Below are positions 4,256-55,200 of a DNA stretch of 64,000 nucleotides, one piece after another (positions within the stretch are counted from its first letter, which is position 1; each line of letters starts with the position of its first letter). The position numbers were made by a program, and so were the translations under genes. This stretch comes from Candidatus Woesearchaeota archaeon. Its GTDB lineage: Archaea > Nanobdellota > Nanobdellia > Woesearchaeales > 21-14-0-10-32-9. The notes beneath the pieces were generated by a model. It saw only the letters and a program-made list of their open reading frames with translations, searched no databases and was not told where the DNA came from. The stretch covers positions 2,008-66,007 of the forward strand of contig JAIPET010000004.1 of NCBI GenBank assembly GCA_021736975.1. Direction: 5' to 3'.

Positions 4256-4299
4256 ACATTTTTTATTAATAAAAAAATATATAAATGTTTTCGTAAATT

Positions 4300-4463
4300 G
4301 GCTCTAGCCGAAAAAGAATAAATTTGTAAACTGCGAATATTTATTTTTCATCTCCGCTAAAAAGAAATAACCGATAAGCACGTAATTTTATTGACTTTGT
4401 CAATAAACTCATCTCAAAATTCTTCAAGGCAGTATACTAAAATCTGTTATTCCTGCTAGAGCC
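4300..4463. repeat. Family-1 palindromic element, copy 1 (candidate structured ncRNA or MITE-like element)
   Basis: Termini GGCTCTAGCCGAAAAAGAATAAATTTGTAAACTGCG ... GGCAGTATACTAAAATCTGTTATTCCTGCTAGAGCC form an imperfect inverted repeat of about 36 nt. Homologous termini at 25536-25658. Contains an internal 9-bp-stem hairpin TTTATTGAC-TTT-GTCAATAAA (4387-4407). Confidence 0.5.
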
Positions 4464-4600
4464 TGTAAATTAGGCTAATATAAAACCCTTCTTTTTGTAT
4501 TGCGAAGCAATATTATTGACTCCGTCAAAAACAAAAAACCAATATTTGAACTTGTTTTGCCATACAAAAAACAAAGAATTACAATTTAATTCACATTATA
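4464..4600. repeat. Family-3 intergenic repeat, copy 1
   Basis: TAAATTAGG...TTCTTTTTGTATT...TATTGACTCCGTCAAAAACAAAAAACCAATATTTG...GTTTTGCCATACAAAAAAC is closely similar to 47243-47410 (about 35-nt core with 2 mismatches). Confidence 0.45.
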
Positions 4601-4706: not shown

Positions 4707-4780
4707 GGGAGCTTAGCTCAGACTGGGAGAGCGCCACGCTGAAGACGTGGAAGTCCAGGGTTCAAATCCCTGAGTTCCCA
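4707..4780 (+). tRNA. tRNA-Phe (anticodon GAA), no encoded CCA
   Basis: 74-nt cloverleaf folded by hand. Acceptor GGGAGCT/AGTTCCC, D-arm GCTC-AGACTGGGA-GAGC, anticodon stem CCACG/CGTGG with loop CTGAAGA, T-arm CAGGG-TTCAAAT-CCCTG, discriminator A, followed by TAA. Confidence 0.9.
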
Positions 4781-6424: not shown

Positions 6425-7054
6425 ATGCAAATAACACCAACCGTATTTTCAAAAAATAAAAAAGAATTTGAAAACAGATTCAAAAAAATATCAAAACTAT
6501 CAAGAGAAATACAAATAGACATAATGGATGGAAAATTTGTAAAAACAAAATCAATAAATATTTCTGACTTACCAAATTTTTTATATTCAGGAAAAATAAT
6601 AGAAGCGCACCTAATGGTAAAAAACCCAGAAAAATATATTGAACCACTAAGAAAAAAATTTGTTGGACGAATAATATTCCATTACGAAACAACAAAAACA
6701 AAAACCCCTGAAATAATAGAAAACATACACAGACACGGAATGCACGCAGTAATGGCAATAAACCCAGAAACAAAACTAGAAAAAATACAACCATATACAC
6801 ACCTAATACACAGAGTCCTAATAATGGGAGTCAAACCAGGAAAAGAAAAACAAAAACTACTAATATCAACATACAAAAAAATCAAAGAACTAAAACAAAA
6901 TAATCTACATCTAAAAATACAAATAGATGGCGGCGTAAATAAAGAAACAGCAAAAAAATTAAAATACGCAGGCGCAGACATATTAAACACAGGAAGCTAC
7001 GTTACAAACGCAAAAGATCCGGAAAAAGCTCTAAAAGAATTAAAAAACATATAG
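6425..7054 (+). CDS. rpe: ribulose-phosphate 3-epimerase
   Basis: IDIMDGKFV and AHLMV motifs of the Rpe (TIM-barrel) family. 209 aa. Confidence 0.6.
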   Translation: MQITPTVFSKNKKEFENRFKKISKLSREIQIDIMDGKFVKTKSINISDLPNFLYSGKIIEAHLMVKNPEKYIEPLRKKFVGRIIFHYETTKTKTPEIIENIHRHGMHAVMAINPETKLEKIQPYTHLIHRVLIMGVKPGKEKQKLLISTYKKIKELKQNNLHLKIQIDGGVNKETAKKLKYAGADILNTGSYVTNAKDPEKALKELKNI

Positions 7055-7062
7055 AGAGCTTT

Positions 7063-7201
7063 TTCCAACATTTCTGTTTTTCAAACAAAAATCATCCAAA
7101 AAAAGCAATAGAAGAACTAAAAAATCTATAACTCACTTTTTCTAACATTTTCATTTTACAAACAAAAATCATCCAGAAAAAGCAATAGAAGAACTAAAAA
7201 A
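7063..7201. repeat. Tandem direct repeat, two copies of about 65 bp, in a convergent intergenic region
   Basis: TTTTC[C/T]AACATTT...CAAACAAAAATCATCCA[A/G]AAAAAGCAATAGAAGAACTAAAAAA occurs at 7063-7128 and 7136-7201, between rpe stop and the stop of the minus-strand gene at 7202. Confidence 0.5.
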
Positions 7202-7729
7202 CTAATATTTCTTTAATAAATTATTCAAATCAAAATACTGAGACCTAACACTCCTTAAAGAATCACTAAAATCTTCCTTAAACTTAACTTCAGAAACATA
7301 ATCGCCACTCCCAACACCAATATTAAAATCAGAATCAAATTTAAATTTGTCATTTGAACCATCAAGAGCATCATTCATTTTTTTATAAGCCAAAACATCA
7401 TTAGGACAGTTAATCTCAAAACCTCCTAATTTAAAACTTAAAGGAGTAAGCTTCAAATCAAAAGCCAAATTATTACCCTTGGAATAAAATTTAGTAAAAC
7501 AACCAACTAAACTAGGAACATCAGCAAAATCAACATAAGTACCTTTTATCTCAGAATGAAAAGAATCATTATAAAAAAAATTAGCTGATTGAATAAAAAA
7601 AGAAGACAACAACTCATTAAAAGGACCATTAGAATCATTAAGGAATTTTAAATCAGCAAATTCAGCATACTCATTTTTCAAATTTGTACCAATTTGAAAA
7701 TTTACTCCTAAACTATTCAAAATCGACAT
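7202..7729 (-). CDS. hypothetical protein
   Basis: 175-aa ORF. No recognisable motif. Confidence 0.4.
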   Translation of the reverse strand: MSILNSLGVNFQIGTNLKNEYAEFADLKFLNDSNGPFNELLSSFFIQSANFFYNDSFHSEIKGTYVDFADVPSLVGCFTKFYSKGNNLAFDLKLTPLSFKLGGFEINCPNDVLAYKKMNDALDGSNDKFKFDSDFNIGVGSGDYVSEVKFKEDFSDSLRSVRSQYFDLNNLLKKY

Positions 7730-23849: not shown

Positions 23850-25379
23850 TTATCTTCTTCTGTTTCCTCTTGGTGCTCCGCCAGAAGACCTATTACCAGA
23901 AGATCTACCACCTGCAAAACCACCAGAAGACCTATTACCAGAACTTCCACCAGACCTACCGCCAGAAGAACCGCCAGAAGACCTATTACCAGATCCTCCT
24001 CTTCTATCTCCTGAACCCTCTTGATTTCCCCTACTATAATTACTTCTTTTAGAAGAATTAGAATCATCATTTAATCTATTAGAATTACCAGACGATCTAC
24101 CTGAAGACCTGCCACCTGCAGAACCACCAGACGATCTACCACCATATCTACTAGGAGGCCTACCGCCACCAGAGCCTCCACGTTTTCCACCGTTTCCACC
24201 ACTCCTATAATTGCCTCTTCTATCTCCAGAATTATTTGAATCTCCTCTAGACTGAACAATTTGAACATTAGGCAACTCTTTTGGAATCTCTTGCTTTTTA
24301 ATATCTAAAGTAAAAGATTGATTTAATCTTCCAAAATTCTGATGATCATTCTGAGAAAGAATAGTTATAGCAATACCTTCTTTTCCAGCTCTCGCAGTTC
24401 TACCAATTCTATGTACATATTGCTTTGGATCCTTAGGCACATCAAAATTATAAACATGCGAAACACTAGGAATATCTAATCCTCTAGCTGCAACATCAGT
24501 ACAAACCATAACAGAAACTTCCGATTTATGAAAATCTTGTAAAACCTTGCTTCTTCTATCTTGCGAAAAACCACCATGAATTGCTTTAGCCCTAATATTT
24601 TGAGCATTCAAATTCTTAGTAACAAAATCAACATTATCCCTACTATTACAAAAAACCATGACAAGACCAGGTTTTTCATTCTTAATTAAAGAAATCAATA
24701 AAGATAACTTTTGATTAGGTCTCACATCATAATAAACTTGTTTTAATTTTGTAGGATCAACTTGATTCTTAACAGCTACATCAACAGGATCTTTTAAGAA
24801 CCATTTAGAAACTCTTCTAATTTCAGGCGTGATAGTTGCAGAAAACAATAAAGTTTGTCTTTGTTTAGGACAAACAGAAACTATTCTTCTAACATCATCA
24901 ATGAAACCCATATCAAGCATAGTATCTGCTTCATCTAAAACAACAAAATGAGTTTCAGAAAAATCAATAGTCTCCCTTTCCATATGATCCATTATCCTAC
25001 CAGGGGTACCAACAACAACATCAGCCCTTCTAAGATTTTCAATTTGAGGATTAATAGAAACACCGCCATAAACAGAAACAACTTTCAATTTTTTATGTTT
25101 AGAAAATTTCTTGATAGCATCACTAACTTGCTCAGCTAACTCTCTAGTTGGAACAAGAATAAGTGATTGAACCACACTTTTCTTTTCAACATACTCAATA
25201 ACACCACACGCAAATGCAAGTGTTTTTCCAGAACCTGTTGCACTACCCGCAATAACATCTTTACCTTCTTGAATCAAAGGAATAGTTTTCTTTTGAATCT
25301 CTGTAGGTTCAGTAAAACCTTCTTCAGATATTACTTTTAGCACTGGTTCTATTATATTTAATTTTTCAAATTCATTCAT
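23850..25379 (-). CDS. DEAD-box ATP-dependent RNA helicase with about 150-aa C-terminal RGG/Gly-Ser-rich low-complexity tail
   Basis: Q-motif/TEPTEIQ, AGSATGSGKT, DEAD, SAT, HRIGRTARAG. Tail made of repeated GGRSSG/RGG units. Confidence 0.9.
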   Translation of the reverse strand: MNEFEKLNIIEPVLKVISEEGFTEPTEIQKKTIPLIQEGKDVIAGSATGSGKTLAFACGVIEYVEKKSVVQSLILVPTRELAEQVSDAIKKFSKHKKLKVVSVYGGVSINPQIENLRRADVVVGTPGRIMDHMERETIDFSETHFVVLDEADTMLDMGFIDDVRRIVSVCPKQRQTLLFSATITPEIRRVSKWFLKDPVDVAVKNQVDPTKLKQVYYDVRPNQKLSLLISLIKNEKPGLVMVFCNSRDNVDFVTKNLNAQNIRAKAIHGGFSQDRRSKVLQDFHKSEVSVMVCTDVAARGLDIPSVSHVYNFDVPKDPKQYVHRIGRTARAGKEGIAITILSQNDHQNFGRLNQSFTLDIKKQEIPKELPNVQIVQSRGDSNNSGDRRGNYRSGGNGGKRGGSGGGRPPSRYGGRSSGGSAGGRSSGRSSGNSNRLNDDSNSSKRSNYSRGNQEGSGDRRGGSGNRSSGGSSGGRSGGSSGNRSSGGFAGGRSSGNRSSGGAPRGNRRR

Positions 25380-25515: not shown

Positions 25516-25535
25516 ATCTTTCATTTAAATAATTC

Positions 25536-25658
25536 GGCTCTGGCCGGAAAAGAATAAATTTGTATACTGGAACACGGCACAACCTATGCATTCTCTTCGA
25601 GACTGCATGTACCTCAATGGGCGCCAGTATACACAAAAGCGTTATTCCGGCTAGAACC
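25536..25658. repeat. Family-1 palindromic element, copy 2 (candidate structured ncRNA or MITE-like element)
   Basis: GGCTCTGGCCGGAAAAGAATAAATTTGTATACTGGA ... GCCAGTATACACAAAAGCGTTATTCCGGCTAGAACC. About 35-nt imperfect terminal inverted repeat homologous to 4300-4463. Confidence 0.5.
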
Positions 25659-25672
25659 AATAATTCAAATCA

Positions 25673-37951: not shown

Positions 37952-39046
37952 ATGATTTGGCTACAAACAATCAAAGACACACTATCCTTAATAACACAAC
38001 AACCCGACACGACAGCACTAGAAGCAAAAAGAATACAAGCAGAACAAGATTTTTTACTAAACAAACAAACAAAACAAGAACAAATAGAAACAAAAATACA
38101 AAACTACAACAACATAATACAAGAACCCCAAAAAAATGGATTGAAATTAAACAGGTTTAATGTAACATCTGGAAACTATCACCTTACAATAGATCAAAAT
38201 CCAAATTTAGAAAATAAAATACAAAATGATGTAATAATTTTTGGAAAAAACAAAGTTTACAAAGATTTATTTGTAAACATAATAACAAACGGAGATATAG
38301 AAGAAGAAATAACAGGATACTTACACACAGGAATAAACACAAAAATAGGAAATACAAAAATAAAAATACATGGAGGACATGGACTTAGCAACAAACTCCC
38401 AAAAACATTCATAGGAGGAGAAATAAGCGAAGAAAATAATTACCATCTTGAATCAGTATTCTTTAGTCCAGAGCCAATCCTATCAAATGGACAAAAAGCA
38501 TTTTTCATAATGACTGCAAAACAAATAGGACAAAAAGATTACATAAGCATAGGAAACAATGATGGAACCTGGAAATCAATCTACGGACACATAAATGATA
38601 AAATAGGAACCTACCTAAGCACTGAATTTGAGCCGAATAAAAAAGAATTTTCATTTTCAACAACAACAGCATGGAGTAAACCTGCAAAAAATGCATATTC
38701 TTGGAAAGGAATGAATTTTGTAAGTCAAATACTAATGATACAACCATTTTCATTCCCTTATCTTTCAAGCCACACAAATAAAGGAGACGACATAACACGC
38801 ATAGAAGGAAAAATATCAGAAAATAATAAAGAATTTACAGTGATGCAAGGTAAAAATCTAGGACTTATGAAAATAGGAATAGGACTCACATATCAGAAAA
38901 AAAATGGAGAAGAAAAATACGGAGTAGTCGGAAACATCTACAAAGAATTCGATATAACAAAAGAAATGACAGGAACCATAGACCTAAGATACAACTCAGC
39001 AAAAAAAACACTTAATCTATGGTTAAACACAAATATTGAGATGTAA
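37952..39046 (+). CDS. hypothetical beta-rich protein
   Basis: 364 aa. No signal peptide recognised. Confidence 0.45.
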   Translation: MIWLQTIKDTLSLITQQPDTTALEAKRIQAEQDFLLNKQTKQEQIETKIQNYNNIIQEPQKNGLKLNRFNVTSGNYHLTIDQNPNLENKIQNDVIIFGKNKVYKDLFVNIITNGDIEEEITGYLHTGINTKIGNTKIKIHGGHGLSNKLPKTFIGGEISEENNYHLESVFFSPEPILSNGQKAFFIMTAKQIGQKDYISIGNNDGTWKSIYGHINDKIGTYLSTEFEPNKKEFSFSTTTAWSKPAKNAYSWKGMNFVSQILMIQPFSFPYLSSHTNKGDDITRIEGKISENNKEFTVMQGKNLGLMKIGIGLTYQKKNGEEKYGVVGNIYKEFDITKEMTGTIDLRYNSAKKTLNLWLNTNIEM

Positions 39047-39048
39047 AA

Positions 39049-39798
39049 ATGAAAAAAGCAATACTAACAACAATACTACTTACAACAATACTTTACACAA
39101 CAGGATGTAATACTCAAAACGATAAATCCTTCCAAACAAGAAATACACTTACAGAAGAAGAAGTAGAAAAAACAAGAATGGAACTTCTTAACAAAAAAGA
39201 AGAATATTTCAAAGAAAAAGGAATAACTATGGACTCAATCTATGCATATCCAAAAACAACAACAGAACCACTTATCACAGCATATCTAGAAGAATTTAAT
39301 CTTGCAGAAATATATCTAAAAGGAATAACCCCAAATAAAGCAAAAAAATACAAAGATCAAACACTAGAATCCCTCAAAATATATGCACAATTCGGAATAG
39401 AACCAGAATTCGAAAACAAAATTCCTGAACAACTAAAAAAATTCCACATAGTAGATCTCTACAAAACAAACATAGACGCAGATACAATAAAATCAGAATA
39501 CGAAAAATTCAACCAACTAGAATCTACAGTGAAACACGACGGACCAAGAAACATATACGACAACGATTTTGTGAATGTACTCAAAAGCTGCCTTAAGATG
39601 AAAGATTTTGAAAAATACTGGGAAATTAACAACAAATACAAGACACATATAGACTTCGGAGAAGCATATAGTTTCGAAATTAACAAAACTCCTTTCTACA
39701 AAATAAAAGAAGCTGCAAAAACACACTACAAAAAAATCCTAGAGAAAGAAAAGAAAGAATTCGAACAAAGAATAACAAACGCGCTAGAGAGTGAATAA
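39049..39798 (+). CDS. lipoprotein, unknown function
   Basis: Signal peptide with lipobox-like LYTTGC. Confidence 0.5.
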   Translation: MKKAILTTILLTTILYTTGCNTQNDKSFQTRNTLTEEEVEKTRMELLNKKEEYFKEKGITMDSIYAYPKTTTEPLITAYLEEFNLAEIYLKGITPNKAKKYKDQTLESLKIYAQFGIEPEFENKIPEQLKKFHIVDLYKTNIDADTIKSEYEKFNQLESTVKHDGPRNIYDNDFVNVLKSCLKMKDFEKYWEINNKYKTHIDFGEAYSFEINKTPFYKIKEAAKTHYKKILEKEKKEFEQRITNALESE

Positions 39799-39801
39799 AA
39801 A

Positions 39802-40734
39802 ATGACTGAAATAAAACTAATAATAAAACCAAGAGAAGAAATGACCTGGAAACAGTTCATCAAAGAAACACCAGAATACTCAATAGCATTAGATGGAATT
39901 GTAACCGGAGGACCAAACTTTGATGAAAAATCCAAACACGTAAACTTTGATCACCACGGACTCAAACTTCCAAGAGAAGCACTAATGAGCACAGCAAAAC
40001 AAGTTTACTTTGCAATCAAAGGAAACTTATTCAAACTTTTTCAAAATGATGGAATACCCAAAGCAAATATATACATAAACGACACAGACCAAGACACAAT
40101 GCTCGGAGTTTATCAATTAATGAATCATAAAGGATTTGAAGGAATACAAAGCAATGCGCAATTTAATCGACTTTTAGATCTTACAGATAAACTCGATATA
40201 ACAGGCGGTGCATTTCCTATGAATCTTGACGAAAAACTTGTATCGCAACACAACTGGATATTCGAACCATACACAAAACTTAGACAAACAGGAGAGCTAA
40301 ATAAAGCAACAGAAGACATACTAAGAGATAACGTAGAAGCAATGACTCTAAGAATAAACAAATTCCTATTAGGACAAGGAGGGAAAAAACCACTAGACAC
40401 AAGACATAAAATAATCTACAACTCGCCAAAATTTGTAATGATAGATGAAATAGGAGGAAATGAAGCACGATATTATTTATTTTCAAAAGGAATGGACGCA
40501 TACATAAGCATAGTTGGAAATATGCCTGGAGGGAGAAGAAACATAACTGTGGGAAGATCATCAAAATACGTTCCTTTTGATGTACCTGGACTAGTAAATC
40601 ACTACAACAAAAATGAAGACATGGAAAATCCTTGGGGCGGGTCAAGTCTTGTCGCTGGATGTAGAAATGTAGGAACATCATTTAGCAACCAAAAAATAAT
40701 CGATTTAACAAACGAATACCTTGATAGAAAATGA
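39802..40734 (+). CDS. hypothetical protein (FDHHG and GGSS motifs, possible phosphoesterase-like)
   Basis: 310 aa. Weak DHH/GGGH-like motifs in atypical order. Confidence 0.4.
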   Translation: MTEIKLIIKPREEMTWKQFIKETPEYSIALDGIVTGGPNFDEKSKHVNFDHHGLKLPREALMSTAKQVYFAIKGNLFKLFQNDGIPKANIYINDTDQDTMLGVYQLMNHKGFEGIQSNAQFNRLLDLTDKLDITGGAFPMNLDEKLVSQHNWIFEPYTKLRQTGELNKATEDILRDNVEAMTLRINKFLLGQGGKKPLDTRHKIIYNSPKFVMIDEIGGNEARYYLFSKGMDAYISIVGNMPGGRRNITVGRSSKYVPFDVPGLVNHYNKNEDMENPWGGSSLVAGCRNVGTSFSNQKIIDLTNEYLDRK

Positions 40735-41058
40735 AAGAAAACTATGAAAGAAAATATTATTCATTAGATATGGTTTCAGAAATTTCTGAAAAAGAAATAA
40801 TTTTCGAAGGAATAGAAAAAGAGCTCGAAAACTGGGAACTAATAAGGAAATGAATGATTTTACTGGGCACGAACCTAGTTTCAAAGAGCCATCATTTTAT
40901 CATAACTCCCAAGTCTAATAATGCTGCAACATTAGAAAAAAAACACTAAAATATGGGCATGTAAAAATAGGTTGAGTGGAGATTTATTTAACAGGAACAA
41001 AATCAGGAATAAACAATATTTTAGAAAATATAGCAAAAACGTATAAGGAGAAAACAAA

Positions 41059-41799
41059 ATGACACTAACTGAACAACAACAAAAACAAATAGATAAACAA
41101 AAAGAAGCACACCAGCACGAAAATTATAAAATAGATCTAAAAATAACAGAAGACTTTATTTTAAAAGACTTTGAAGTGCATAAAGATATACTAAGACCTG
41201 AAGTTATGACCTCCATAACATTAGCAAGATGGCTTTATTATCACAAATCTCTATATGAAAACAGACCTGTTCTAGATATGGGAAGCGGGACTGGATTACA
41301 AGGAATAATAACTGGATTAAATGGAGCTCAAAGAGTTGATTTTATAGATTCAGAAAAAAACTGTGTGAAAAACACAAAAACAAACGCAAAAAAATATCTT
41401 AAAAATTTAGAATACGAAACAATACAATCAGATTTATTTAGCAATAACGAAATAGAAAAAATAGAAATGCCTGGAAAAGGAAGACACGAAGTATACATAT
41501 TCAACCATCCCTTCTTCTCACAAAAATATATAGGTCCTGTAAATAAAAGCATGGAAAGCAATAGAAATATTGGAAAAGAATTTTTGATGCAATTATATTT
41601 CAAGATAGATGAAGACGACGACATAATCATGCCTTTTTATCATAGAGCATCAATAGAAAATGACCCAGAAACATTAATCGAAAAAGGAAATCTCTATGGA
41701 TTCTTTGAAATACAAACAAAAGAAACAGTAAATATACTTTCAGGACTCCAACAAGGAAAACAATCAATCTACCACATCAAAAAAATAAGCGAACAATAA
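41059..41799 (+). CDS. class I SAM-dependent methyltransferase (HemK/RsmD-like N-methyltransferase type)
   Basis: SD AGGAG upstream. Motif I VLDMGSGTG and motif IV IFNHPFF. Confidence 0.6.
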   Translation: MTLTEQQQKQIDKQKEAHQHENYKIDLKITEDFILKDFEVHKDILRPEVMTSITLARWLYYHKSLYENRPVLDMGSGTGLQGIITGLNGAQRVDFIDSEKNCVKNTKTNAKKYLKNLEYETIQSDLFSNNEIEKIEMPGKGRHEVYIFNHPFFSQKYIGPVNKSMESNRNIGKEFLMQLYFKIDEDDDIIMPFYHRASIENDPETLIEKGNLYGFFEIQTKETVNILSGLQQGKQSIYHIKKISEQ

Positions 41800-41800
41800 A

Positions 41801-42382
41801 ATGAAACTTCAAGACACAATAACAGACCCATTCGCAGAAAAATTAGCCGCAAAATTAATAGGGGACAAATACTACGATTTTCTTGGAGAAATAAGATTAA
41901 ATCAAGATACAAAAAATATAATAATTGACAAACAATTATTTAAAAAAAATAAAAAAGAATTTTTTCAAAAATATAATTATGACTATCTAACAAAAGAAGA
42001 TGGATTATACGTAGTTAACAATTTAGGCTGGACAAATAAAATAGGAATGAAAAGAGCAATAACTAAACACAGAAAAGTTTTCAAGAAAAGCATCCCTTAT
42101 TATACACTAATAATAAAGCCAGAAGATATAGAATATATTGGAACAAGACAAATTAATTTAGGCTTCTACAATTTTAATAACATGACATTGGTAACTTCTC
42201 CTGTAACAAAAAACTTCAACACCTATTTATTTCACGCATTTTTTGATAATAAATCAGGAGACCCTGTTTACAAAATGCATAGCGGCATATACCTGCAAAG
42301 AGACGCAGGAACTAAACGTTTAGAATACAAGACGCTAACAGATCTAACTCAAATAAAATTATTGGCGAAATTATATTGGTGA
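41801..42382 (+). CDS. hypothetical protein
   Basis: 193 aa. Start overlaps the methyltransferase stop. Confidence 0.4.
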   Translation: MKLQDTITDPFAEKLAAKLIGDKYYDFLGEIRLNQDTKNIIIDKQLFKKNKKEFFQKYNYDYLTKEDGLYVVNNLGWTNKIGMKRAITKHRKVFKKSIPYYTLIIKPEDIEYIGTRQINLGFYNFNNMTLVTSPVTKNFNTYLFHAFFDNKSGDPVYKMHSGIYLQRDAGTKRLEYKTLTDLTQIKLLAKLYW

Positions 42383-42580
42383 AATTAGAATGAATGAATC
42401 AGAGTTTAGACAAAAAACCTGTTAATACCTGAATGAGGCAAACATCATAATTATTCTGGATACAAGATATTTAAAGTTGAGAAAAAATAAAATTTTATTA
42501 ATAATTAATTTCTATATTATAAATAAATAACCATTTAAAGCAAAACGTTTAAATACTGAAAGAACAAAATTCTATATAAA

Positions 42581-44260
42581 ATGGTGAGAAAAGGACAAAC
42601 TGGCTCAAATGCAGGCATCACAATAATAGTAGTTGTTGTATTAATGATTTTATACTTATTATTTTTACCTCCTGGAGACCGACAAACAATTCTAGAAGGA
42701 GGAGTTCCAACAGGAATGCATAATACAAACGGAAACGATGACGGAACATACACGAGTTCAGGCACATTACAAAAATATTTACTAAGAGAAAACGTAGGAA
42801 ACGTATATGAACAAGATAAAGATGAAATAACAATAAACCTTCTAACAGCAAACATAGGAACAAACACACAAGCACAAATAATAAAACAAAAAAATGTAGT
42901 ATATATAAAAAATTCAGCGTTTCAAGACATAAAAGATTCGATGACATTTGAACTAGACTCCGACTTAGCAGAAAACCTAATACTAAGTTTTAATTCAGAA
43001 AAAGGAGAAGGAACACTCCAAGTAGCAATAAATGGAGAAACAATATACAGAGGAGAACTAAAAAACAAAAATTCACCACCAATATATATAGAAAAAGAAC
43101 AACTCAAAGGAATAAATGAAATAACATTTGAAGTAGACAACCCAGGAATAATATTTTGGAGATATAACGAATACTTACTATCAGATGTAAAAATAATAGC
43201 GGATGTAACAGACGTAACAAACTCAAAAAATGAACAAACATTCAGCATAAAAGAAGCAGACTACGAACAAATAGACACTGCGAGACTCAAATACATACCT
43301 GTATGTAAAGAATACGAAATACAAAATATGGAAATAATCCTAAACAATCAAAGAATATTCAAAGGAATACCAGATTGTAATGCACATAATTTCATCGCAA
43401 TAAGCAAAACACAAGTAAAATCAGGAATAAACGAATTAGAATTCAATGTAGAAAAAGGAACTTTGCTAGCAGATAGACCTGAACTACAACTAAAATTCAG
43501 CGAACCAGAATACCCAATATATTACTTTGAATTAAATGATAAATACTTTGATACACAAACTAAAGAAAAACAATGTGGCGACATAGACGGACAATGCCCA
43601 TCAGGATGCACAGAAGATGAAGATAAAGACTGTTGTTTCAAAAGATCCTCAAATTATTGGTGCGACACAGATACAAATAATTTTAACGATAGATGCATAA
43701 GTTTTGTAGCAGACTGCGATCGATGCGAAGCAGGATATGAAGACAGATCAGGAGATGCACCAGACAGATGCGTAGACGAATACGAAGACACAGGATACTG
43801 TGGAGATGATGATGATGACTATTGCCCAACAGGATGTTCAAAATACTACGATAAAGACTGTTGCTTTGAAGATGGACCAAATTACTGGTGCGAAGACGTA
43901 CCAAGACAAGGACTAGAATCAGTATGCGAAGCAGAAATAGATGCAAACGAATGCGATGACTGCATATACGGATATAAAGACGAAGACGGCGATAAACCAA
44001 GTTGTAATTTAAACACAATAACAGACGAAGACGAACAATTAAGCGAAATGTACGACATAAAATACGAAATGACATTTCCAAATAATGATAAAAAAGAACT
44101 AAACATATGGATAAATGGGAAAAAATTTGGAATAAATACATTAGAAGAAAAATATGACAGATTAATAGATGAATACGTAAAATCAGGATCAAACTCAATA
44201 GAAATAAGACCTGAAAAAGACGCAACAATAACAGAACTAGTAGTGAAACTACTAAGATAA
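42581..44260 (+). CDS. membrane-anchored surface protein with C-terminal duplicated Cys-rich module
   Basis: N-terminal TM (ITIIVVVVLMILYLLFL). Two copies of C..GC.(E/K)..DKDCCF......NYWC(D/E). Confidence 0.55.
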   Translation: MVRKGQTGSNAGITIIVVVVLMILYLLFLPPGDRQTILEGGVPTGMHNTNGNDDGTYTSSGTLQKYLLRENVGNVYEQDKDEITINLLTANIGTNTQAQIIKQKNVVYIKNSAFQDIKDSMTFELDSDLAENLILSFNSEKGEGTLQVAINGETIYRGELKNKNSPPIYIEKEQLKGINEITFEVDNPGIIFWRYNEYLLSDVKIIADVTDVTNSKNEQTFSIKEADYEQIDTARLKYIPVCKEYEIQNMEIILNNQRIFKGIPDCNAHNFIAISKTQVKSGINELEFNVEKGTLLADRPELQLKFSEPEYPIYYFELNDKYFDTQTKEKQCGDIDGQCPSGCTEDEDKDCCFKRSSNYWCDTDTNNFNDRCISFVADCDRCEAGYEDRSGDAPDRCVDEYEDTGYCGDDDDDYCPTGCSKYYDKDCCFEDGPNYWCEDVPRQGLESVCEAEIDANECDDCIYGYKDEDGDKPSCNLNTITDEDEQLSEMYDIKYEMTFPNNDKKELNIWINGKKFGINTLEEKYDRLIDEYVKSGSNSIEIRPEKDATITELVVKLLR

Positions 44261-44368
44261 AAAAAGTTCTAAACTATAAACCAAAAACAAAGCTAAATAA
44301 TAGCATCACAATATTTGCTGCATAAAAAATTTATTAAAAATAAAAATGCCAAAAAGAGCGTATCTTAA

Positions 44369-46153
44369 ATGAACATGAAACTTGGAGAAAAAATTAGCGC
44401 GACAAAAAAAGCAGCATTTGAAACTTATTCAAAAATAAAAGAATATAGAGAAAGAAAAAAAATAGTTTCAAAAATAAAAAAACAAGAAAAAAATAAAAAG
44501 AACGAAATTAAAGAAGAAAACAAAAAACAAAAAAATAACAATAAAATGGTTCAACAAAATAATAACATACCAAATAAAAGAGACAAACACCACATAGACT
44601 CATCACACCTTGGTGGAATAAACGCATTATATATGACAGCAATATTAGTACACATTCTAGATTGGTTATTATTTTCATTTAGAATAAGTCCAGGCACAAT
44701 AGTAAGCAGAGTAGTAGCATACATAGCATTAGCAATAGGAGCGCATTTCGTATTAAGAAATGAAAGCTGGACAGATAGCATAAAAGAATTCTGGCCACTA
44801 GTAATAATACCAACATTCATAATACCCCTTGTGGGAGAATTTGCAAAAATGTTCACATACTCAGCAAGATATGCAGACACAATTGCTGCTTTTGCATTTG
44901 CAATACCAATATGGCTATTATATTTAAACTCAATAACAAGAGATGTTCCTGCAAAAGAACAAACAATATTTATGAAAATTGGAAAAAGATACATACTTAT
45001 TCTTGCAATATTCGCAATAATAAATTTATCAATTGTCACAACAATGAGCATAGCAGAATTTGATGCACTAGGAACCACAGGAATGGATATTGGAATAGCA
45101 ACAAACACTCTTTGGGAATTTATAACAGGAACAGTAGATACTCTAGGCTCGAGCATAAACGAAAGCATAAATAGAGTCTATGAAAACTCGATAGGCGTAT
45201 GGTATAAAGGCCGCGTAGAAGAAGGAAAAGAAAACTCAGGACTATACATAAAAGACTTTAGAACATTTGGAGAAAAAACAAAATATTACAAAGGAGACAC
45301 AATAGAATTAATAGCAGACATAGAAGCAAAACAACTTGAAAAAGAAACACTAATAGACACAAAATGCTACATAGAAGAACTTGGAATAAGTGGATACAAA
45401 CAAAAACAAGAATTACAAGGAACAATAGAAATAGCAGGAAAACCAATCAACTCACTTATAAGATTTGATGATGTTATATCCTCAGAAACAATATTATGTG
45501 TTGTAGACAGTGAATTATTAAAAACAGGAAGATACCAAGCAAAACTAGTAGGAACATTAAATTTCACAACAGAAGGAACAGTACAATACATATTATTATC
45601 AAGAGAAGACATACAAGCACTATCAAAATCACAAAGAGACAATATAAACGGATACTTAAACATACCAATAAAGCCATGGGCAGAATACACACAAGGACCA
45701 TTATCCTTGAAAATGTCTTCAGAAAATCACAAAAACCCAGTATTAGTAAGTAGAGAAAGTCCAACATCTTCAATAAACACAATAGGATTCTTACTCTCAA
45801 CAGAATCAATGAATACAAACTCAAGAAACGGAATAATAAAAAGAATTAAAGAAGTAAGAATAGAAGTTCCGCCAGAATTTGACTTAGACTGTTCAACAGG
45901 AGAATTCTTAGGCCAAACAATAAGACAACAAACAGGATACAAAATATACAAATATAACTACCCATCACAAAAATATTATGATTTGCACGAATTACCACAA
46001 GTATGCCGAGCAACAATAAATTCTGCAAACGTAAACAAATTATTAACAGGACCTATAACACCAACAGAAATATATGTATTCGCATCCGTAGACTACGAAT
46101 ATGAATTTATAAGAAGATCACAATCATTTAATGTACTAGAGGCAAATTCATGA
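44369..46153 (+). CDS. polytopic membrane protein with Lys-rich N-terminal tail and large extracytoplasmic C-terminal domain
   Basis: 594 aa, about 5 TM helices. Confidence 0.5.
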   Translation: MNMKLGEKISATKKAAFETYSKIKEYRERKKIVSKIKKQEKNKKNEIKEENKKQKNNNKMVQQNNNIPNKRDKHHIDSSHLGGINALYMTAILVHILDWLLFSFRISPGTIVSRVVAYIALAIGAHFVLRNESWTDSIKEFWPLVIIPTFIIPLVGEFAKMFTYSARYADTIAAFAFAIPIWLLYLNSITRDVPAKEQTIFMKIGKRYILILAIFAIINLSIVTTMSIAEFDALGTTGMDIGIATNTLWEFITGTVDTLGSSINESINRVYENSIGVWYKGRVEEGKENSGLYIKDFRTFGEKTKYYKGDTIELIADIEAKQLEKETLIDTKCYIEELGISGYKQKQELQGTIEIAGKPINSLIRFDDVISSETILCVVDSELLKTGRYQAKLVGTLNFTTEGTVQYILLSREDIQALSKSQRDNINGYLNIPIKPWAEYTQGPLSLKMSSENHKNPVLVSRESPTSSINTIGFLLSTESMNTNSRNGIIKRIKEVRIEVPPEFDLDCSTGEFLGQTIRQQTGYKIYKYNYPSQKYYDLHELPQVCRATINSANVNKLLTGPITPTEIYVFASVDYEYEFIRRSQSFNVLEANS

Positions 46154-47217
46154 AAAAAATAACAATAACAATCTTACTATTAATATTACTCATAGTGAGT
46201 GGCTGCGGAGGAAATGTAAAAGCAAATTTACCAAATCAATATGTAGGCACTGAAGGATTAACAATAAAATATTGGGATAATATGCCACCAAAAGAAGTAT
46301 ATGAAGATCAAGAAATAATACTAGGATACGAAGTAAAAAATAAAGGAGCAACAAGCCTAAACGAAACAGACATATATGGAACAATAACAATAAAACACAA
46401 CGAACCATACTTAGAACCAAAAGAAAAAATACAACAAAAATTCTACCTACACGGAAAATCACTAGATTATCCAATAGGAGAAAGTTTATTCGTAGAAGGA
46501 GCAGCTTATAAAATACAAAGACTCATAGGACAAGACCAAACATTTTTTGCAACAATAACATCATCACTATGCTACCCATATAAAACAACACTAACAGAAA
46601 CAATATGCGTAGACACAGATTTTCAAAACTCAGAATACCAACCAATATGTAAAAATCAAAAAATGTACAACTACAAAAGTGGACAAGGAGCACCAATAGC
46701 CATAACAAAAATGGAAGTAGCAATGCTACCACAATCAATAAAAGAAACAGATCTAGGAACATTTAATGTAATAAACGAAATAGCATTTGGAAATACAAAT
46801 CCAACAACAGAAATCATAAAAGGAAATAACTTTGCAATACGACCACAAATAAAACTAACAATAGAAAATAAACAAAAAGGATTTCCTTTAATAGATACTC
46901 AAAGCATAACAAACTTACTAAAAACATTCGGTGGACAAGCCTGCGAAAATGAAGAAACACAAGGATTAAATCAAGTATATGTAAAAGCAAAATTAGGAAA
47001 TTATGAATTAAAATGTCTACCTGAACTATTACACCTAGGAAAAAACAAAGAATTAACATGCACACTAAAACCAGAAGATATAACATACATAAACCAAAAT
47101 TACTTAATACCTCTAACAGTAGAAATATATTATAATTATCAACAAACATTCAAAAAAGCAATACAAATAAACAGATTACCAGAAGTCGTAAGAACAGACC
47201 CCTACCAACTACCATAA
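46150..47217 (+). CDS. secreted lipoprotein-like protein, paralog 1 of 3
   Basis: Signal peptide plus SGCGG. Shared motifs YVGTEGL and GAPIAIT with the next two genes. Confidence 0.55.
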   Translation: MKKITITILLLILLIVSGCGGNVKANLPNQYVGTEGLTIKYWDNMPPKEVYEDQEIILGYEVKNKGATSLNETDIYGTITIKHNEPYLEPKEKIQQKFYLHGKSLDYPIGESLFVEGAAYKIQRLIGQDQTFFATITSSLCYPYKTTLTETICVDTDFQNSEYQPICKNQKMYNYKSGQGAPIAITKMEVAMLPQSIKETDLGTFNVINEIAFGNTNPTTEIIKGNNFAIRPQIKLTIENKQKGFPLIDTQSITNLLKTFGGQACENEETQGLNQVYVKAKLGNYELKCLPELLHLGKNKELTCTLKPEDITYINQNYLIPLTVEIYYNYQQTFKKAIQINRLPEVVRTDPYQLP

Positions 47218-47242
47218 AAAACAAAACAAACTATATTCTTAA

Positions 47243-47410
47243 ATAAATTAGGATACAAAAAAAATTATTAAAAATACAAGATTCAAATAATATAATATGA
47301 AACAATTCTTTTTGTATTTTCAAATACCAATATTGACTCCACCAAAAACAAAAAACCAATATTTGCATATATTTTTGCAATACAAAATACAAATAATACA
47401 AATTAACATC
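47243..47410. repeat. Family-3 intergenic repeat, copy 2
   Basis: TAAATTAGG...TTCTTTTTGTATT...TATTGACTCCACCAAAAACAAAAAACCAATATTTG...TTTTGCAATACAAAATAC homologous to 4464-4600. Confidence 0.45.
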
Positions 47411-47484
47411 AAAGCAACACTGAGAGTTTCATAATATCCCTCAAAACAGTAACATTTAAATACAAAAAAACCTAAATTCCACTT

Positions 47485-48798
47485 ATGAAACCCAATAAAA
47501 CAATAATCATTCTATTAATAATAGCACTAATACTAATAACAGGCTGTGATTTTATAGGAAGCGAAAACAGAGGATGTACTGCTGGAGACGCTTGCAGATA
47601 CTATACAGGCACAGAAGGAATATGGATGTATGAAGAAACACCACCAAGATATTTATACTATAGATCAGAAGATGTGGCAGATCCAGATGGAAACGCAATA
47701 GATATAAGTGTAAGAGTAGAAAATCATGGAGCAAGCGAAGCAAAAGGAGCAGTATTCTTAACAGGATTCGCAGAAGGAATGAGCGACATATTCATAGTAG
47801 AAGATAACGGAAATTTAAGAGAAGTAACAATATCAAACATACTAGACGCATGCTATTTTGATTTAGATACAGTAGGAGGCGCATCAAGCCTAACCAATAT
47901 GTTCGGATTATTTAGTTGCGGTGGATTCACAGGAGGCAATAGACCAGGTGGGTGGAGCATAGGAACAAACTTTAAACAAGTAGCAGAAACATTCGGATGG
48001 AATCTAGGAGGCCTTGAAGCATTAAACTTTGAACTAGGAAGAGATTACGACTCAGGATGGAACTTCAAACTAGGAGTTGACGACGAATACTTCAACTTCA
48101 TGTATAACGGAAGAGCATTAGCATTTTTAGTATCAAACCTAGACTTAGAAAGATGGGGTGGCGCAGGATACAACCTAAATGGAGATAATCAAGACACACC
48201 AGGCGGAGATGTAGACTATAAACAATTCAAAGTAAAAATGGAAGGAACATGGCCAGCAGGACAAGATTTCTTTGACATAAGATATCAACTAAAATCATGC
48301 TACGGATACACAACATACGTAAGTCCAATGCTATGTATAGACTCAGATCCATTCTCATCAGAAGACAAAGTTTGCGTATCAGAACAAATGAACTTTGGAG
48401 GAACACAAGGAGCACCAGTAACTGTAACAAATGTAGACCAAACAAACACAGGAAAAGAACTAATACTCGACTTTGAAATAAGAAATTCCGGAAACGGAAA
48501 AGTATGGGATGTTGGAAGACTAGAAGCATGCAGCCCCTATTTCCCAGGAAGTGTAAAACCATCATATCATGACGTAGTATACATAGGACCTGCAAGAGTA
48601 GGATATAGAGAAATAACATGCAATACAAGAAAAGTAAGACTAGATCCAAAATCAGGAACAGGAAGATTCACATGTAGAGTACCATCAGAAATAGGAGGAG
48701 ACGTTGGAAGCGGAACACAAATACCTCTACAAATGGAACTATGGTACGGATACGAAGAAGTACAAACAAATCAATTAACAGTCAGAAAATTAAGCTGA
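47485..48798 (+). CDS. secreted lipoprotein-like protein, paralog 2 of 3
   Basis: Signal peptide plus ITGC. YTGTEGI and GAPVTVT motifs. Confidence 0.55.
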   Translation: MKPNKTIIILLIIALILITGCDFIGSENRGCTAGDACRYYTGTEGIWMYEETPPRYLYYRSEDVADPDGNAIDISVRVENHGASEAKGAVFLTGFAEGMSDIFIVEDNGNLREVTISNILDACYFDLDTVGGASSLTNMFGLFSCGGFTGGNRPGGWSIGTNFKQVAETFGWNLGGLEALNFELGRDYDSGWNFKLGVDDEYFNFMYNGRALAFLVSNLDLERWGGAGYNLNGDNQDTPGGDVDYKQFKVKMEGTWPAGQDFFDIRYQLKSCYGYTTYVSPMLCIDSDPFSSEDKVCVSEQMNFGGTQGAPVTVTNVDQTNTGKELILDFEIRNSGNGKVWDVGRLEACSPYFPGSVKPSYHDVVYIGPARVGYREITCNTRKVRLDPKSGTGRFTCRVPSEIGGDVGSGTQIPLQMELWYGYEEVQTNQLTVRKLS

Positions 48799-48816
48799 AT
48801 TCGGAGGTAAAATAAA

Positions 48817-49767
48817 ATGAAAAAAATAATATTAGTCCTAATGCTTATTGTTATGCTATCATTCTCAGCATGCAATAACAACAATGCAGAAACAGGAGTA
48901 ACAAACACATACATAGGTGGAAGCGAAGGAATAAAAATGGAATTTGCACCAGATGCACCACCAGCAACAACAGCAGATGGAGAACAACAAAACTTTAACA
49001 TCGTAGTTCAATTATCAAACAAAGGAGAATCAGATGTAGAAACAAAAGATGCAAAAGTAACAATAAAAGGATTTTTACCAGAAGCATTTGGAAAAACAAA
49101 AGCAGATCTTGAAATAAACCCTGATGAAAAAATAGAAAAAAGAATAAGAACACCAGACGGCACAATAATAGAACCACCATACATAGAAGCAATAGTAGAA
49201 GACCTAGAATATCAAAATAAAGAACCAGGAAACATAAATCTACCAATCAGAGCAGAAATATGCTACCTATACGAAACAAACGTTGCAACAAAACTATGCA
49301 TAAAAGAAGATATGCTAAAACAAGAAGATGACGACATATGTGAAATAAACTCAAACAGAGACGTATCAAGCAGCGGAGCACCAGTACAAATATCAAAAGT
49401 AAGTCAAACAGGAGCAGGAAGAGACAAAACAAGATTTACATTCACAATAGCGAATGTAGATACAGGAAAAGTATACAAAGAAAACACAGATTGCTCACCA
49501 AGCACAACTAATGAAAACAAAGTATATGCAGAAATACTAGGATTAGAAGGCTCAGAAGTAAAATGTACAGGACTACAAGGCGGAACTAAAGAAGAAAACG
49601 GATATGTAACACTATCAGGCGGAACACCAAGAGACGTAACATGTACAGCAACATTCGCAGAAGACCAAAGAACAGATAGACTACAAACATTCCAAATAAG
49701 ACTAAGCTATAATTACAACGAATTCATCGAACAACCAATAGAAATAGTCTACACACCAGAAGAATAA
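48817..49767 (+). CDS. secreted lipoprotein-like protein, paralog 3 of 3
   Basis: SD GGAGGT upstream. Signal peptide plus SAC. YIGGSEGI and GAPVQIS motifs. Confidence 0.55.
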   Translation: MKKIILVLMLIVMLSFSACNNNNAETGVTNTYIGGSEGIKMEFAPDAPPATTADGEQQNFNIVVQLSNKGESDVETKDAKVTIKGFLPEAFGKTKADLEINPDEKIEKRIRTPDGTIIEPPYIEAIVEDLEYQNKEPGNINLPIRAEICYLYETNVATKLCIKEDMLKQEDDDICEINSNRDVSSSGAPVQISKVSQTGAGRDKTRFTFTIANVDTGKVYKENTDCSPSTTNENKVYAEILGLEGSEVKCTGLQGGTKEENGYVTLSGGTPRDVTCTATFAEDQRTDRLQTFQIRLSYNYNEFIEQPIEIVYTPEE

Positions 49768-49805
49768 ATATTCTTCAATTTTTTCTTTTTTTATTAAATA
49801 AAAAC

Positions 49806-51482: not shown

Positions 51483-52229
51483 TTGACTAATACTAGCGAT
51501 AGCTATGTGGAAAATGATGAAAAAAACATACTCGAATTAGTTCAAACTTTAAAACAACAAACAAACAAACCAGAAATAAAACAAATATATGAAATACTAG
51601 AAAAAGCGAAAAAAACAGAAGAAATAGCAAAAAAAACAAACCTAAGCAAAAGAAGAATACAACAAATAATAAAAAAACAAACAGGAAAAACACCGAATCA
51701 AATAAGACAAGAAATAATACACTTAAAACAAAAAAATCTAAAACAAACCAAAAAAATATCTAGCTTAAAACAAATAAGAACAAAAAAATACATTTCAGAA
51801 AGTGAAATAGAAAACATTCTAAACAAAACAAAAAATAAAACAAACCTAACAATAATTCAAACAATTCTAGAAACAGGCTGCACACTAGACGAAATAACAA
51901 ACATAAAAAAAACAGATTTATTTGACAACCAACTAAACATAAATGGACGAATAATAACAATAACAAAACAACTAAAAAAAAACCTGAACAAAATACAAAC
52001 AAAATCAAAATACATATTCTCATCAAGACAATCAGAACAAATAAGCAAAAAAAGAATTTTTCAAATTATAAAGAAAGAAACAAATCAAAACGCACAAATT
52101 CTAAGAAATACCTGCATCGTAAACTTACTTCAAAAAGGAATTTCTAAAGAAAAAATAGTGAAAAAAACAGGCATCAAAAATCTGAGCCTGAGTACATACG
52201 GCATAGGAGAAAAAATAAACCATGACTAG
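51483..52229 (+). CDS. Lys-rich HTH protein with C-terminal degenerate tyrosine-recombinase-like domain
   Basis: Non-ATG start (TTG 51483 or GTG 51507). HTH-like TEEIAKKTNLSKRRIQQI. C-terminus ILETGCTLDEI...ILRNT...LSLSTYGI aligns by eye to recombinase box I/II but lacks most catalytic residues. Confidence 0.45.
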   Translation: MTNTSDSYVENDEKNILELVQTLKQQTNKPEIKQIYEILEKAKKTEEIAKKTNLSKRRIQQIIKKQTGKTPNQIRQEIIHLKQKNLKQTKKISSLKQIRTKKYISESEIENILNKTKNKTNLTIIQTILETGCTLDEITNIKKTDLFDNQLNINGRIITITKQLKKNLNKIQTKSKYIFSSRQSEQISKKRIFQIIKKETNQNAQILRNTCIVNLLQKGISKEKIVKKTGIKNLSLSTYGIGEKINHD

Positions 52230-55200
52230 ATTAAAGAATAAACCGGAAAGTGTACTCTTTAAAATAGTTTTAATTACGATTATGCTAATATTACTAACAT
52301 CCAATGCAACCGCTGATTGGTGGAATCCTGCATGGGAAGAAAGGATAAATCTAAGTATGAACTACACAGGAAATAACCAAACAAATTTCCCAATAGCTGT
52401 GCATCTAAATCAAACCATAATAAACTACAATAAAACAATGGCAAATGGACAAGACATAAGAATGATAGATTGTCAAACAAACCAATCACTAAACTACGAA
52501 ATAGAACTATGGAACAACACAGGAGACTCACTAATATGGGTAAACATACCAACAATAAGTCCAAATAGCTGCATATGGCTATACTACAATAACTCACAAG
52601 CAACAACAAATCAAAGCGCGGCAAATACTTGGAACAGCAATTACGACATAGTATATCACATGACAAATACAGGAATTGACGTATCAGGAAACAACATAAA
52701 CTACAACGGACTAATTGGATCCCCACAAACAACAAAAGAATTTTTAGGATACGGACAAACATTTGACGGCACTAATGCATGGAACATGAAAGACGTATCA
52801 TACTGGGAAATAGAATGGTATGTACGAGCACATGAAGTCGTATTTAAAACTACAAATGACATAACAACAAAACAAACACTACTCGGAGAAGGAGGGGGAA
52901 CAAACGGAGTACTAATGTACATAGACTCAGGAAACTTATACGCAAGATGGTGGAGCGAAACAGCACCAGCCTGGGCAGGAGATCAAATACTCGCGCCAAT
53001 AGAAGAAAATAAAACATATTATGCAATAATGACATTTGCAGAAGATACAGCACCAAACAATTACTCCCTAATACTAAATGGAGTAACGATAGATTCAAGA
53101 GTAACACCTGATGAAATGGACCCCCACACAGGAGATGGAGGCATAGCATACACAGGAACAAATACAAAAGATTACCATGATGGAAATAGTGGAGGAAATT
53201 ACTTTAAAGGAACCATATATGAATTTAGAACAACAAACTCAATATATGACGAAGACTGGTACGCACTACAAAACAAATCAATATTTAACAATTTAATAAA
53301 TTACAACATAGAATCAGGACAAGCAAACTTTAACACAATAAACATAAGCGACACAACATTAAATTATAACCAAACCATAAACATAACCGCGAACATAACA
53401 AGCACAGAGCAAATAAATAAAACATGGCTAGAAATAATAATGCCAGACACCACCAAAATAACAAAATTCCTAACAAAAATATCTCAAGATACATATGAAC
53501 TAATAATACAACTAACAAACCCAGGAATCTACACACTAGAATTATTTGCAAATAATTCACAAGGAAATAATTACTCAACAACATTACAAAATATTGAATT
53601 ATACAACAACATAAAAATAACAAACATCTCAACAACAAACACAAGCATAGACCTAGGAAACAGCGTAAAAATAAATTGCACAATAATAAATAACGATACG
53701 AACTCACCACTAGAAAATTATACAGTTACATATACAAGTAATCAAACAGGATTCTTAGAAAATAAAACAACAAACAATAATGGCATAGCCCAATATACAT
53801 TCATAGACAATACTCTAGGAATAGAAGAAATAACTTGCCATATTAACAATTCACAAGGAAAATATCTAAATACAATAAATCCAAGCAGCATGCAAACAAC
53901 AATAATAACAATACAACCATCAGACTTGACAATATATAATGTGACGCATACAGAATTAGAAGGAATATATCAAAACATAAAAATAAATACAAATATAAAA
54001 ACAGCATTTAATATAACTTATGCAAAAATAAACATAACATTGCCAAATAATGAAATAAAAACAATAAATATGACGCACATAACAGGAGAACTATACGAAG
54101 CAAATTATAACGATACAAAAATAACAGGAAATTATAAATTTAAAATATATGCACAAGACGAAGAACCAAGCACAGACATAAGTCCGGAATTTTCATTTGA
54201 CATAGAAGTTAATTCAAACATAGAAATATATACTGATAAAGAAGCATATGCAAAAAACGAAATAATATTATTATCCTCAAACCCATTAAACTGGTGGGAT
54301 ATAAATTGGAATAATAGAAAAGAAATCACACTAACAGAAAACTCAAATGAAAACCTATACGAATACCAAGTGCCAATAAATGTAAATACGCAAGAACTAA
54401 TAACGCAAGGAAAATTAAGTTCAGATTGCTCAGATATAAGAATGATAAGCATAGATAATGAAGAATTAGATTTCTTTTACGAAGAATACGGACCAAATAA
54501 ATGCAACACAACGCAAACTACAATTTGGACAAAAATGCCAATAATGCTAGCAAATGAAGAAACAACAATATACATATATTATAACAACATAGGTATAGAA
54601 AAAACAAGCAACATATCAAACACATTTAGCTACAATGCGCCAAGAACCATAGGCTATGTACTAAGCGATGTATTAGCCGCTCAAAGTTTATCAGTAATAA
54701 GTTTAGAAGATGATAACGAAGTGCAAGTAAATGCAACAACAAAACAACTAAATAAACAAAACACAACAACATTTCCTGCGAGCTCAATAAACACTCAAAT
54801 AAAAGCTAAAAAAGCAGTACACATAACAAGTCAAGGAGATGGAACTGACATTATAAGTCCAATAAGTCATGCAGGAACAAACTTTTACTATAGATCCGAC
54901 AGATATACAAACAGATTTGCCATGATATCTCCATTTGGAAATGCAAATGTAACAATATATTCATCAGGAACAAAAGTATGGAATGGAATAATAAATGAAA
55001 ATGGATCCGTAATAAATCAAGACATAGTAGATGGAAACACAGTAAAAATAAATTCTACACTCCCTATATTAGTCCAACATATAAGTGATAGCGGAAGCGC
55101 AGATACAGATTCACAACTATTCTACCCTGCAACAACAGACCCACTATACGGCGTGCCAACAAATTATTTACAAATAGGATCCGGTGCAAATGGAGCATAC

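Follow-up and report, generated by a model that had tools for sequence, protein, structure and literature searches.

Two elements with inverted ends and flush target-site duplications

Two short non-coding elements in the genome of a Candidatus Woesearchaeota (DPANN) archaeon are very probably MITEs, with terminal inverted repeats (TIRs) of about 35 bp and 8-bp target-site duplications (TSDs). Their inverted ends, together with 8-bp TSDs that lie flush against these ends and differ in sequence from site to site, show that both were inserted by transposition. The 64-kb window, by which we mean the whole stretch of DNA that was analysed, has about 30% G+C and carries archaeal genes, including those for a RIO kinase, a KH/Pno1-like protein and a TruD-family pseudouridine synthase. 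The DEAD-box helicase encoded in it is 100% identical to a protein that carries the name Candidatus Woesearchaeota archaeon at NCBI. Copy 1 is situated between a PAP2-family gene (- strand) and the genes for tRNA-Phe (+) and CNNM (+), and copy 2 between the genes for a DEAD-box helicase (-) and a RIO kinase (+). Both are thus intergenic and flanked by divergently oriented genes, in line with the original prediction, which had placed them in divergent promoter regions. The features of the two insertions, including the four arms as aligned, are listed below by position.

4292..4299, unstranded: left TSD of copy 1, CGTAAATT (cgtaaatt), flush with the element tip, 7/8 positions identical to 4464-4471
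4300-4463, same orientation as copy 2: copy 1, very probable MITE, 164 bp
4300..4335, + strand: IRL of copy 1, GGCTCTAGCCGAAAAAGAATAAATTTGTAAACTGCG, profile match E=5e-8; aligned arm IRL1, GGCTCTAGCCGAAAAAGAATAAATTTGTAAACTG
4336..4428, unstranded: interior of copy 1, AT-rich, GC 0.28, no ORF >28 aa
4429..4463, - strand: IRR of copy 1, reverse complement GGCTCTAGCAGGAATAACAGATTTTAGTATACTGC, profile match E=1.5e-8; aligned arm IRR1, GGCTCTAGCAGGAATAACAGATTTTAGTATACTG
4464..4471, unstranded: right TSD of copy 1, TGTAAATT (tgtaaatt), 7/8 positions identical to the left TSD
25528..25535, unstranded: left TSD of copy 2, AATAATTC (aataattc), flush with the tips, 8/8 positions identical to 25659-25666
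25536-25658, same orientation as copy 1: copy 2, very probable MITE, 123 bp
25536..25570, + strand: IRL of copy 2, GGCTCTGGCCGGAAAAGAATAAATTTGTATACTGG, profile match E=8e-9; aligned arm IRL2, GGCTCTGGCCGGAAAAGAATAAATTTGTATACTG
25571..25623, unstranded: interior of copy 2, GC 0.51 (genome GC 0.30), contains a small hairpin
25624..25658, - strand: IRR of copy 2, reverse complement GGTTCTAGCCGGAATAACGCTTTTGTGTATACTGG, profile match E=5e-8; aligned arm IRR2, GGTTCTAGCCGGAATAACGCTTTTGTGTATACTG
25659..25666, unstranded: right TSD of copy 2, AATAATTC (aataattc), 8/8 positions identical to the left TSD

The inverted repeat of copy 1 (arms 4300-4334/4429-4463) is 35 nt long and ungapped, with 71% complementarity overall and no mismatch in the outer 9 bp, and so agrees with the imperfect inverted repeat of about 36 nt and perfect outer 9 bp that had been described from the letters. 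A second copy at 25536-25658, with the same ends and a different, shorter interior, had also been claimed and was confirmed; its complementary arms are 25536-25549/25645-25658 (outer 14 nt, 86%) and 25561-25570/25624-25633 (inner 10 nt, 100%). The IRLs of the two copies are identical at 31/36 positions, and all four arms can be aligned without gaps and fit a single profile with E between 8e-9 and 5e-8. Left and right ends have their tip in common (positions 1-9) as well as a block further in (positions 27-34), and the spacing of the conserved tip GGCTCTAGC and the inner block GTAWACTG is fixed in 4/4 arms. The middles of the arms differ between left and right, each being kept between the copies (IRL1 resembles IRL2, and IRR1 resembles IRR2). 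This pattern is that of IS ends, and an RNA stem constrained by pairing alone would not be expected to show it. When the window was searched with 34-nt left-end and right-end patterns, only these two places were found, with 0.00 matches expected (100 dinucleotide shuffles), and a profile of the four arms detected no further, solo or degenerate ends in the window or in the loci of the nearest relative. Dispersal, as seen with end patterns and profile, amounts to two copies within 64 kb.

The interiors of the two copies are unrelated, with a local alignment score below the shuffle mean and a GC content of 0.28 versus 0.51. The perfect hairpin with a 9-bp stem that had been noticed inside copy 1 is real (TTTATTGAC-TTT-GTCAATAAA, 4387-4407). 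The longest ORF overlapping either copy encodes 51 aa, and there is no transposase gene inside. In the short ORFs running across the right ends, copy 1 and copy 2 differ by one synonymous and four non-synonymous changes, and this codon comparison gave no apparent sign of coding constraint.

The 8-bp direct repeats of host sequence that abut the GG...CC tips of both copies had been overlooked in the earlier note. For random positions in this window, the chance of a match of at least 7/8 at the spacing of copy 1 is 2e-3 and that of an 8/8 match at the spacing of copy 2 is 8e-5; the empirical joint chance of both flush TSD matches in this window is about 1e-7. As the duplicated octamers differ between the two sites, they represent target DNA and not element sequence. 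Inverted ends combined with a target duplication of fixed length are the hallmark of elements inserted by a DDE transposase via staggered cuts. Against the assignment as a MITE count the single mismatch in the TSD of copy 1, the low number of copies seen directly (two), and the searches that detected neither a transposase or autonomous element with matching ends in the window nor an empty site.

Distribution and signs of further copies

A strict end pattern fitting 4/4 arms, GGYTCTRGCMGRAA-N12-GTAWACTG, gave 0 matches in GTDB genomes (185,579 species, one genome per species), among the 241 million records of the JGI metagenomes and in IMG/VR, collections from which the source population is absent. 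A looser pattern, GGYTCTRGC-N3-AA-N12-GTANACTG, led to 27, 10 and 1 matches in these collections, all of them to a single arm. These were rejected as relatives of the element: they come from unrelated organisms or coding DNA, are mostly GC-richer and have neither an inverted partner nor a duplication (two were checked by eye). We judged them to be chance matches, their number being close to that expected from the pattern information by our own estimate. BLASTN against 72,556 plasmids yielded no match for copy 2 and only fragments with E of at least 2 for copy 1.

At the locus of the nearest relative the element is absent and the gene order different. The helicase of this closest other genome is 69% identical at the protein level, and four extra genes separate RIO kinase and helicase, so that it offers no orthologous intergenic region for an empty-site comparison. 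Neither an empty site nor a presence/absence polymorphism was found, as all available assemblies of this population carry both copies. The homologues in related genomes that the original prediction expected of an RNA were thus missing, both from the end-pattern searches (GTDB, JGI, IMG/VR) and from the nearest relative. With no matches in the collections or the relative, the element is lineage-restricted, and such a restriction is consistent with a young mobile element but not with a conserved RNA gene.

Sequences matching the window were found in contigs of GCA_021734925.1 and GCA_021735585.1 and in the Logan assemblies of SRR12088349-51. The two matching contigs that were compared in full each differ from the window by one base. 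The Logan contigs, which we take to have been built with k=31, break at both loci. In the assemblies of the three runs, three contigs stop at 25563, 28 nt inside the IRL of copy 2, and two begin at 25581. Around copy 1, position 4419 is the end of two contigs and 4519 the start of one. The breaks inside the elements suggest further copies in the sample, and population polymorphism could be an alternative cause. If the breaks are repeat boundaries, exact repeats of the segments ~25534-25610 and ~4390-4548 exist elsewhere in the samples. The former would begin at most 2 nt from the element tip, as a further copy with other flanking DNA should. In the latter, the right half of copy 1 and the TSD next to it would form one unit with half of the adjoining Family-3 repeat (see below), which, on the same premise, counts against the MITE assignment.

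Structured RNA and other explanations

We consider it very unlikely that the two copies represent a structured small RNA gene, either independent or derived from a domesticated MITE, with a + strand transcript and a long terminal stem selected for pairing. Folding of the elements does beat shuffles (z -4.0 and -5.6), but the opposite strands fold equally well or better, with -34.0 kcal/mol on the plus versus -42.8 kcal/mol on the minus strand for copy 1 and -45.2 versus -50.0 kcal/mol for copy 2. As both strands beat shuffles and the minus strand is at least equal to the plus strand, the folding fits a DNA palindrome. Similarly, the mismatches in the outer helix of copy 2 are C-A and G-U on one strand and U-G and A-C on the other, and since the mismatch types swap between the strands, neither strand is favoured.

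One both-sided change preserves a pair in the stem, namely the C:G to G:C swap that had been put forward as compensatory. The swap itself is real, but the argument for selection on pairing that was drawn from it found no support: it affects a single pair at the innermost edge of the repeat, with one G-U and two broken pairs next to it, and the observed covariation values were reached in 261/500 shuffles. Over the three helices proposed at the outset, the comparison of copy 1 with copy 2 gave one both-sided change, one G-U, two broken pairs and 20 invariant pairs. TATA-like AT-rich sequence about 20-30 nt upstream of copies 1 and 2 would also suit a transcript, but it is host DNA outside the element, and such strings are common in this genome. 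The GC-rich interior of copy 2 within an AT-rich genome speaks for an RNA as well, although the interiors of copies 1 and 2 have nothing in common. In an Rfam scan of the whole window at gathering thresholds only tRNA-Phe passed, and around both copies at E<=10 the best matches scored 15-18 bits (E 0.8-7), where the thresholds lie at 42-64. No family, C/D and H/ACA sRNAs included, was obtained for either copy, as anticipated from the earlier failure to match the element to tRNA, 5S, SRP RNA or RNase P RNA. Homologues were found neither in any collection searched nor in the nearest relative, and an RNA gene would leave the flush 8-bp target duplications unexplained.

It is less probable still that the copies are hairpin-recognised or site-specific elements handled as single-stranded DNA, such as an integron attC, a REP/RAYT palindrome or an IS200/IS605-type palindrome-associated element. 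A single strand of the element folds well as a hairpin, and an imperfect palindrome of 123-164 bp with a variable centre overlaps the size range of attC. Yet 8-bp duplications are present at both copies, and we know of no IS200/IS605, REP/RAYT or attC system that makes them; integrase, RAYT and TnpA/TnpB domains are absent from the window. An attC is defined by conserved core sites at its ends and a cassette array beside an integrase, without target duplication. By inspection the ends here, GGCTCT.../...AGAGCC, are not attC core sites, and the copies stand alone, separated by 21 kb and outside any cassette array. From these ends, the isolated positions, the 8-bp duplications and the lack of an integrase domain in the window, an integron attC was rejected.

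An immobile two-copy repeat, segmental or due to chance, with flanking 8-mers that coincide in AT-rich DNA, is close to refuted: just two copies were observed directly and short matches are commoner in an AT-rich genome than in balanced DNA, but against this stand the joint chance given above for the two flush duplications, the 0 chance matches expected for the 34-nt ends, and a similarity that stops exactly at the tips around unrelated interiors, which a segmental duplication would not yield.

Proposed mobilisation of the probable MITE

The TIRs, the TSDs that differ from site to site, small size, lack of coding capacity and intergenic sites together point to a MITE that would be mobilised in trans by a DDE transposase, where both the mobilisation in trans and the DDE chemistry are what we infer from this combination. 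A transposase encoded elsewhere would bind both ends as double-stranded DNA and then excise or copy the element, which would be joined to AT-rich target DNA after staggered cuts 8 bp apart; gap repair would lead to the 8-bp direct repeats. Each copy would retain just its two predicted transposase-binding ends of about 35 bp, and the hairpin-forming potential is then a by-product of the inverted ends. The non-coding filler, wholly different between the copies, suggests two independent deletion derivatives or sub-families. Recognition of the ends as double-stranded inverted repeats is likelier than recognition of a hairpin, because hairpin-recognising systems make no 8-bp duplications. The original prediction had left the choice between a structured RNA and a mobile element recognised by its hairpin, and had named MITE behaviour as a point to check; the mobile element is supported by the TIRs and flush TSDs, the RNA is not supported, and recognition as a hairpin is the less likely mode.

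MITEs are familiar from bacteria and archaea (PMC10969869), with archaeal examples from Sulfolobus, Halobacterium, Haloquadratum and a DPANN census (PMC10969869, PMC11602168). In a census of 8,220 archaeal genomes, a Woesearchaeal genome was among the most MITE-dense, with 105 per Mb (PMC11602168). The elements described here are like prokaryotic MITEs, including archaeal ones, in their size (123-164 bp here), TIRs, TSDs, lack of coding capacity, intergenic position and restriction to a taxon (PMC10969869, PMC11602168). They differ in that most MITE families are homogeneous throughout, whereas these two copies have only their ends in common, their single somewhat unusual trait, and in that the inverted repeats of about 35 bp make up a large share of the element.

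It is unlikely that the element belongs to an undescribed IS lineage, DPANN-specific or horizontally acquired, in which case the GC-rich interior of copy 2 (0.51 vs 0.30) would be left over from DNA recently received from a donor of higher GC, for instance the symbiont's host. Unlikely, too, is an acquired role of the copies at the divergent promoters, as regulatory hairpins close to the promoter or as small RNAs. That the GC-rich interior of copy 2 hints at a foreign origin is speculation.

Parent transposon family

An ISL3-like element is our best guess for the parent family of the MITE, a tentative one suggested by the GGCTCT tip, the 8-bp duplication and the long inverted repeats. ISL3 elements have inverted repeats in a long size range, and the repeats of about 35 bp found here fall within it. 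ISL3 elements have an inverted repeat beginning GGCTCTTCG... and 8-bp direct repeats, often insert into AT-rich targets and spawn MITEs (PMC6305408 Table 3; PMC11448079); an ISL3-derived MITE of Microcystis is a comparable known case (PMC11448079). ISArsp7 (ISL3), with the IR GGCTCTTCGCGG... and an 8-bp DR, matches our elements in the first six tip bases, GGCTCT (PMC6305408). AT-rich targets are likewise common to ISL3 and the elements here, as illustrated by the ISPst2 direct repeats TTTTTAAA and CAAAAAAG (PMC6305408). After these six equal bases, however, the tips diverge, with AGCCG here versus TCGCG in ISL3. No transposase domain was detected among the window's genes (Pfam matches on record and scans of the ORFs at 57.9-63.8 kb), nor an autonomous element with matching ends within the 64-kb window.

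Other families making 8-bp duplications are IS256, IS1595, IS66, ISH6 and the ISH1 group of IS5; within the IS6/IS26 group, IS6100 begins GGCTCTG. The IS6 family is abundant in archaea, makes 8-bp duplications and has short inverted repeats (15-20 bp) whose tip is GG and in which the motifs cTGTt and caaa are conserved, the TGT inside cTGTt fully so (PMC7986276). The elements resemble IS6/IS26 in the GG tip, the 8-bp target duplication and an A-run at positions 12-16, and two IS6-derived MITEs are on record (PMC7986276). Nevertheless, the IS6 family does not fit as the parent: in 4/4 arms TAG or TGG stands at positions 6-8 in place of TGT, and the repeats are about 35 bp and not 15-20 bp long. 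IS6 also moves by cointegrate formation, rarely leaving simple MITE insertions.

Neighbouring repeat and other features of the window

Next to copy 1 lies Family-3, a dispersed intergenic repeat with copies at 4476-4589 and 47293-47406 that are 74% identical over about 114 nt. The first of these starts 4 nt past the right TSD of MITE copy 1. Nesting of copy 1 within Family-3 was considered and rejected: similarity to the second Family-3 copy begins at 4476, with none left of the MITE, and the two elements abut instead. The original prediction was therefore correct in describing copy 1 as contiguous with a Family-3 repeat and upstream of tRNA-Phe (4707-4780). This is the only tRNA gene in the 64 kb, and as the bases following it are TAA, no CCA end is encoded.

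The first Family-3 copy is partly palindromic (arms 4492-4510/4552-4570, 84%), and folding of the second is no better than that of shuffles. One Logan contig starts within Family-3 at 4519, suggesting more copies of this repeat elsewhere. A TATTGAC-NNN-GTCAA palindrome is found once in copy 1 (4389-4403) and once in Family-3 (4514-4528); at the latter position TATTGACNNNGTCAA occurs again, which bears out the earlier observation that the TTGAC...GTCAA motif recurs in the adjoining repeat. Part of the copy 1 interior (4341-4376) weakly resembles the Family-3 core (4510-4544), with 27/35 positions identical and 2/300 shuffles scoring equally high. From this alignment, the likeness may reflect a shared origin or a shared protein-binding site.

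Further observations concern the rest of the window. On its + strand, A strongly and consistently outnumbers T (AT skew 0.05-0.54), and G+C varies between 0.26 and 0.37. A tandem repeat at 7002-7202 (77-nt units, 2.6 copies, 79% matches) begins inside the 3' end of the ORF 6425-7054 and barely reaches into the ORF 7202-7729 on the minus strand, likewise at its 3' end. In the DEAD-box helicase gene (23850-25379, - strand), the C-terminal ~130 residues are of low complexity and rich in Gly, Ser and Arg, with GGRSSG and SGNRSSGG units; the DNA encoding this tail (23878-24150) consists of imperfect repeats of 33-51 nt. Nine consecutive + strand genes of 193-594 aa without a Pfam match on record occupy ~38000-49800 and are followed by an acetyltransferase gene, an RFC-like AAA gene, one gene without a Pfam match and the gene for a DUF2341 protein of 1805 aa (52222-57639). 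The nine-gene run and the DUF2341 region may form a cell-surface gene cluster.

Implications

The elements leave the current understanding unchallenged. Their practical value is for annotation, where both loci should be entered as MITE insertions instead of candidate RNA genes. The insertions may also explain why the short-read assemblies of this population are fragmented at these points, and both mark transposon activity in a reduced DPANN genome.
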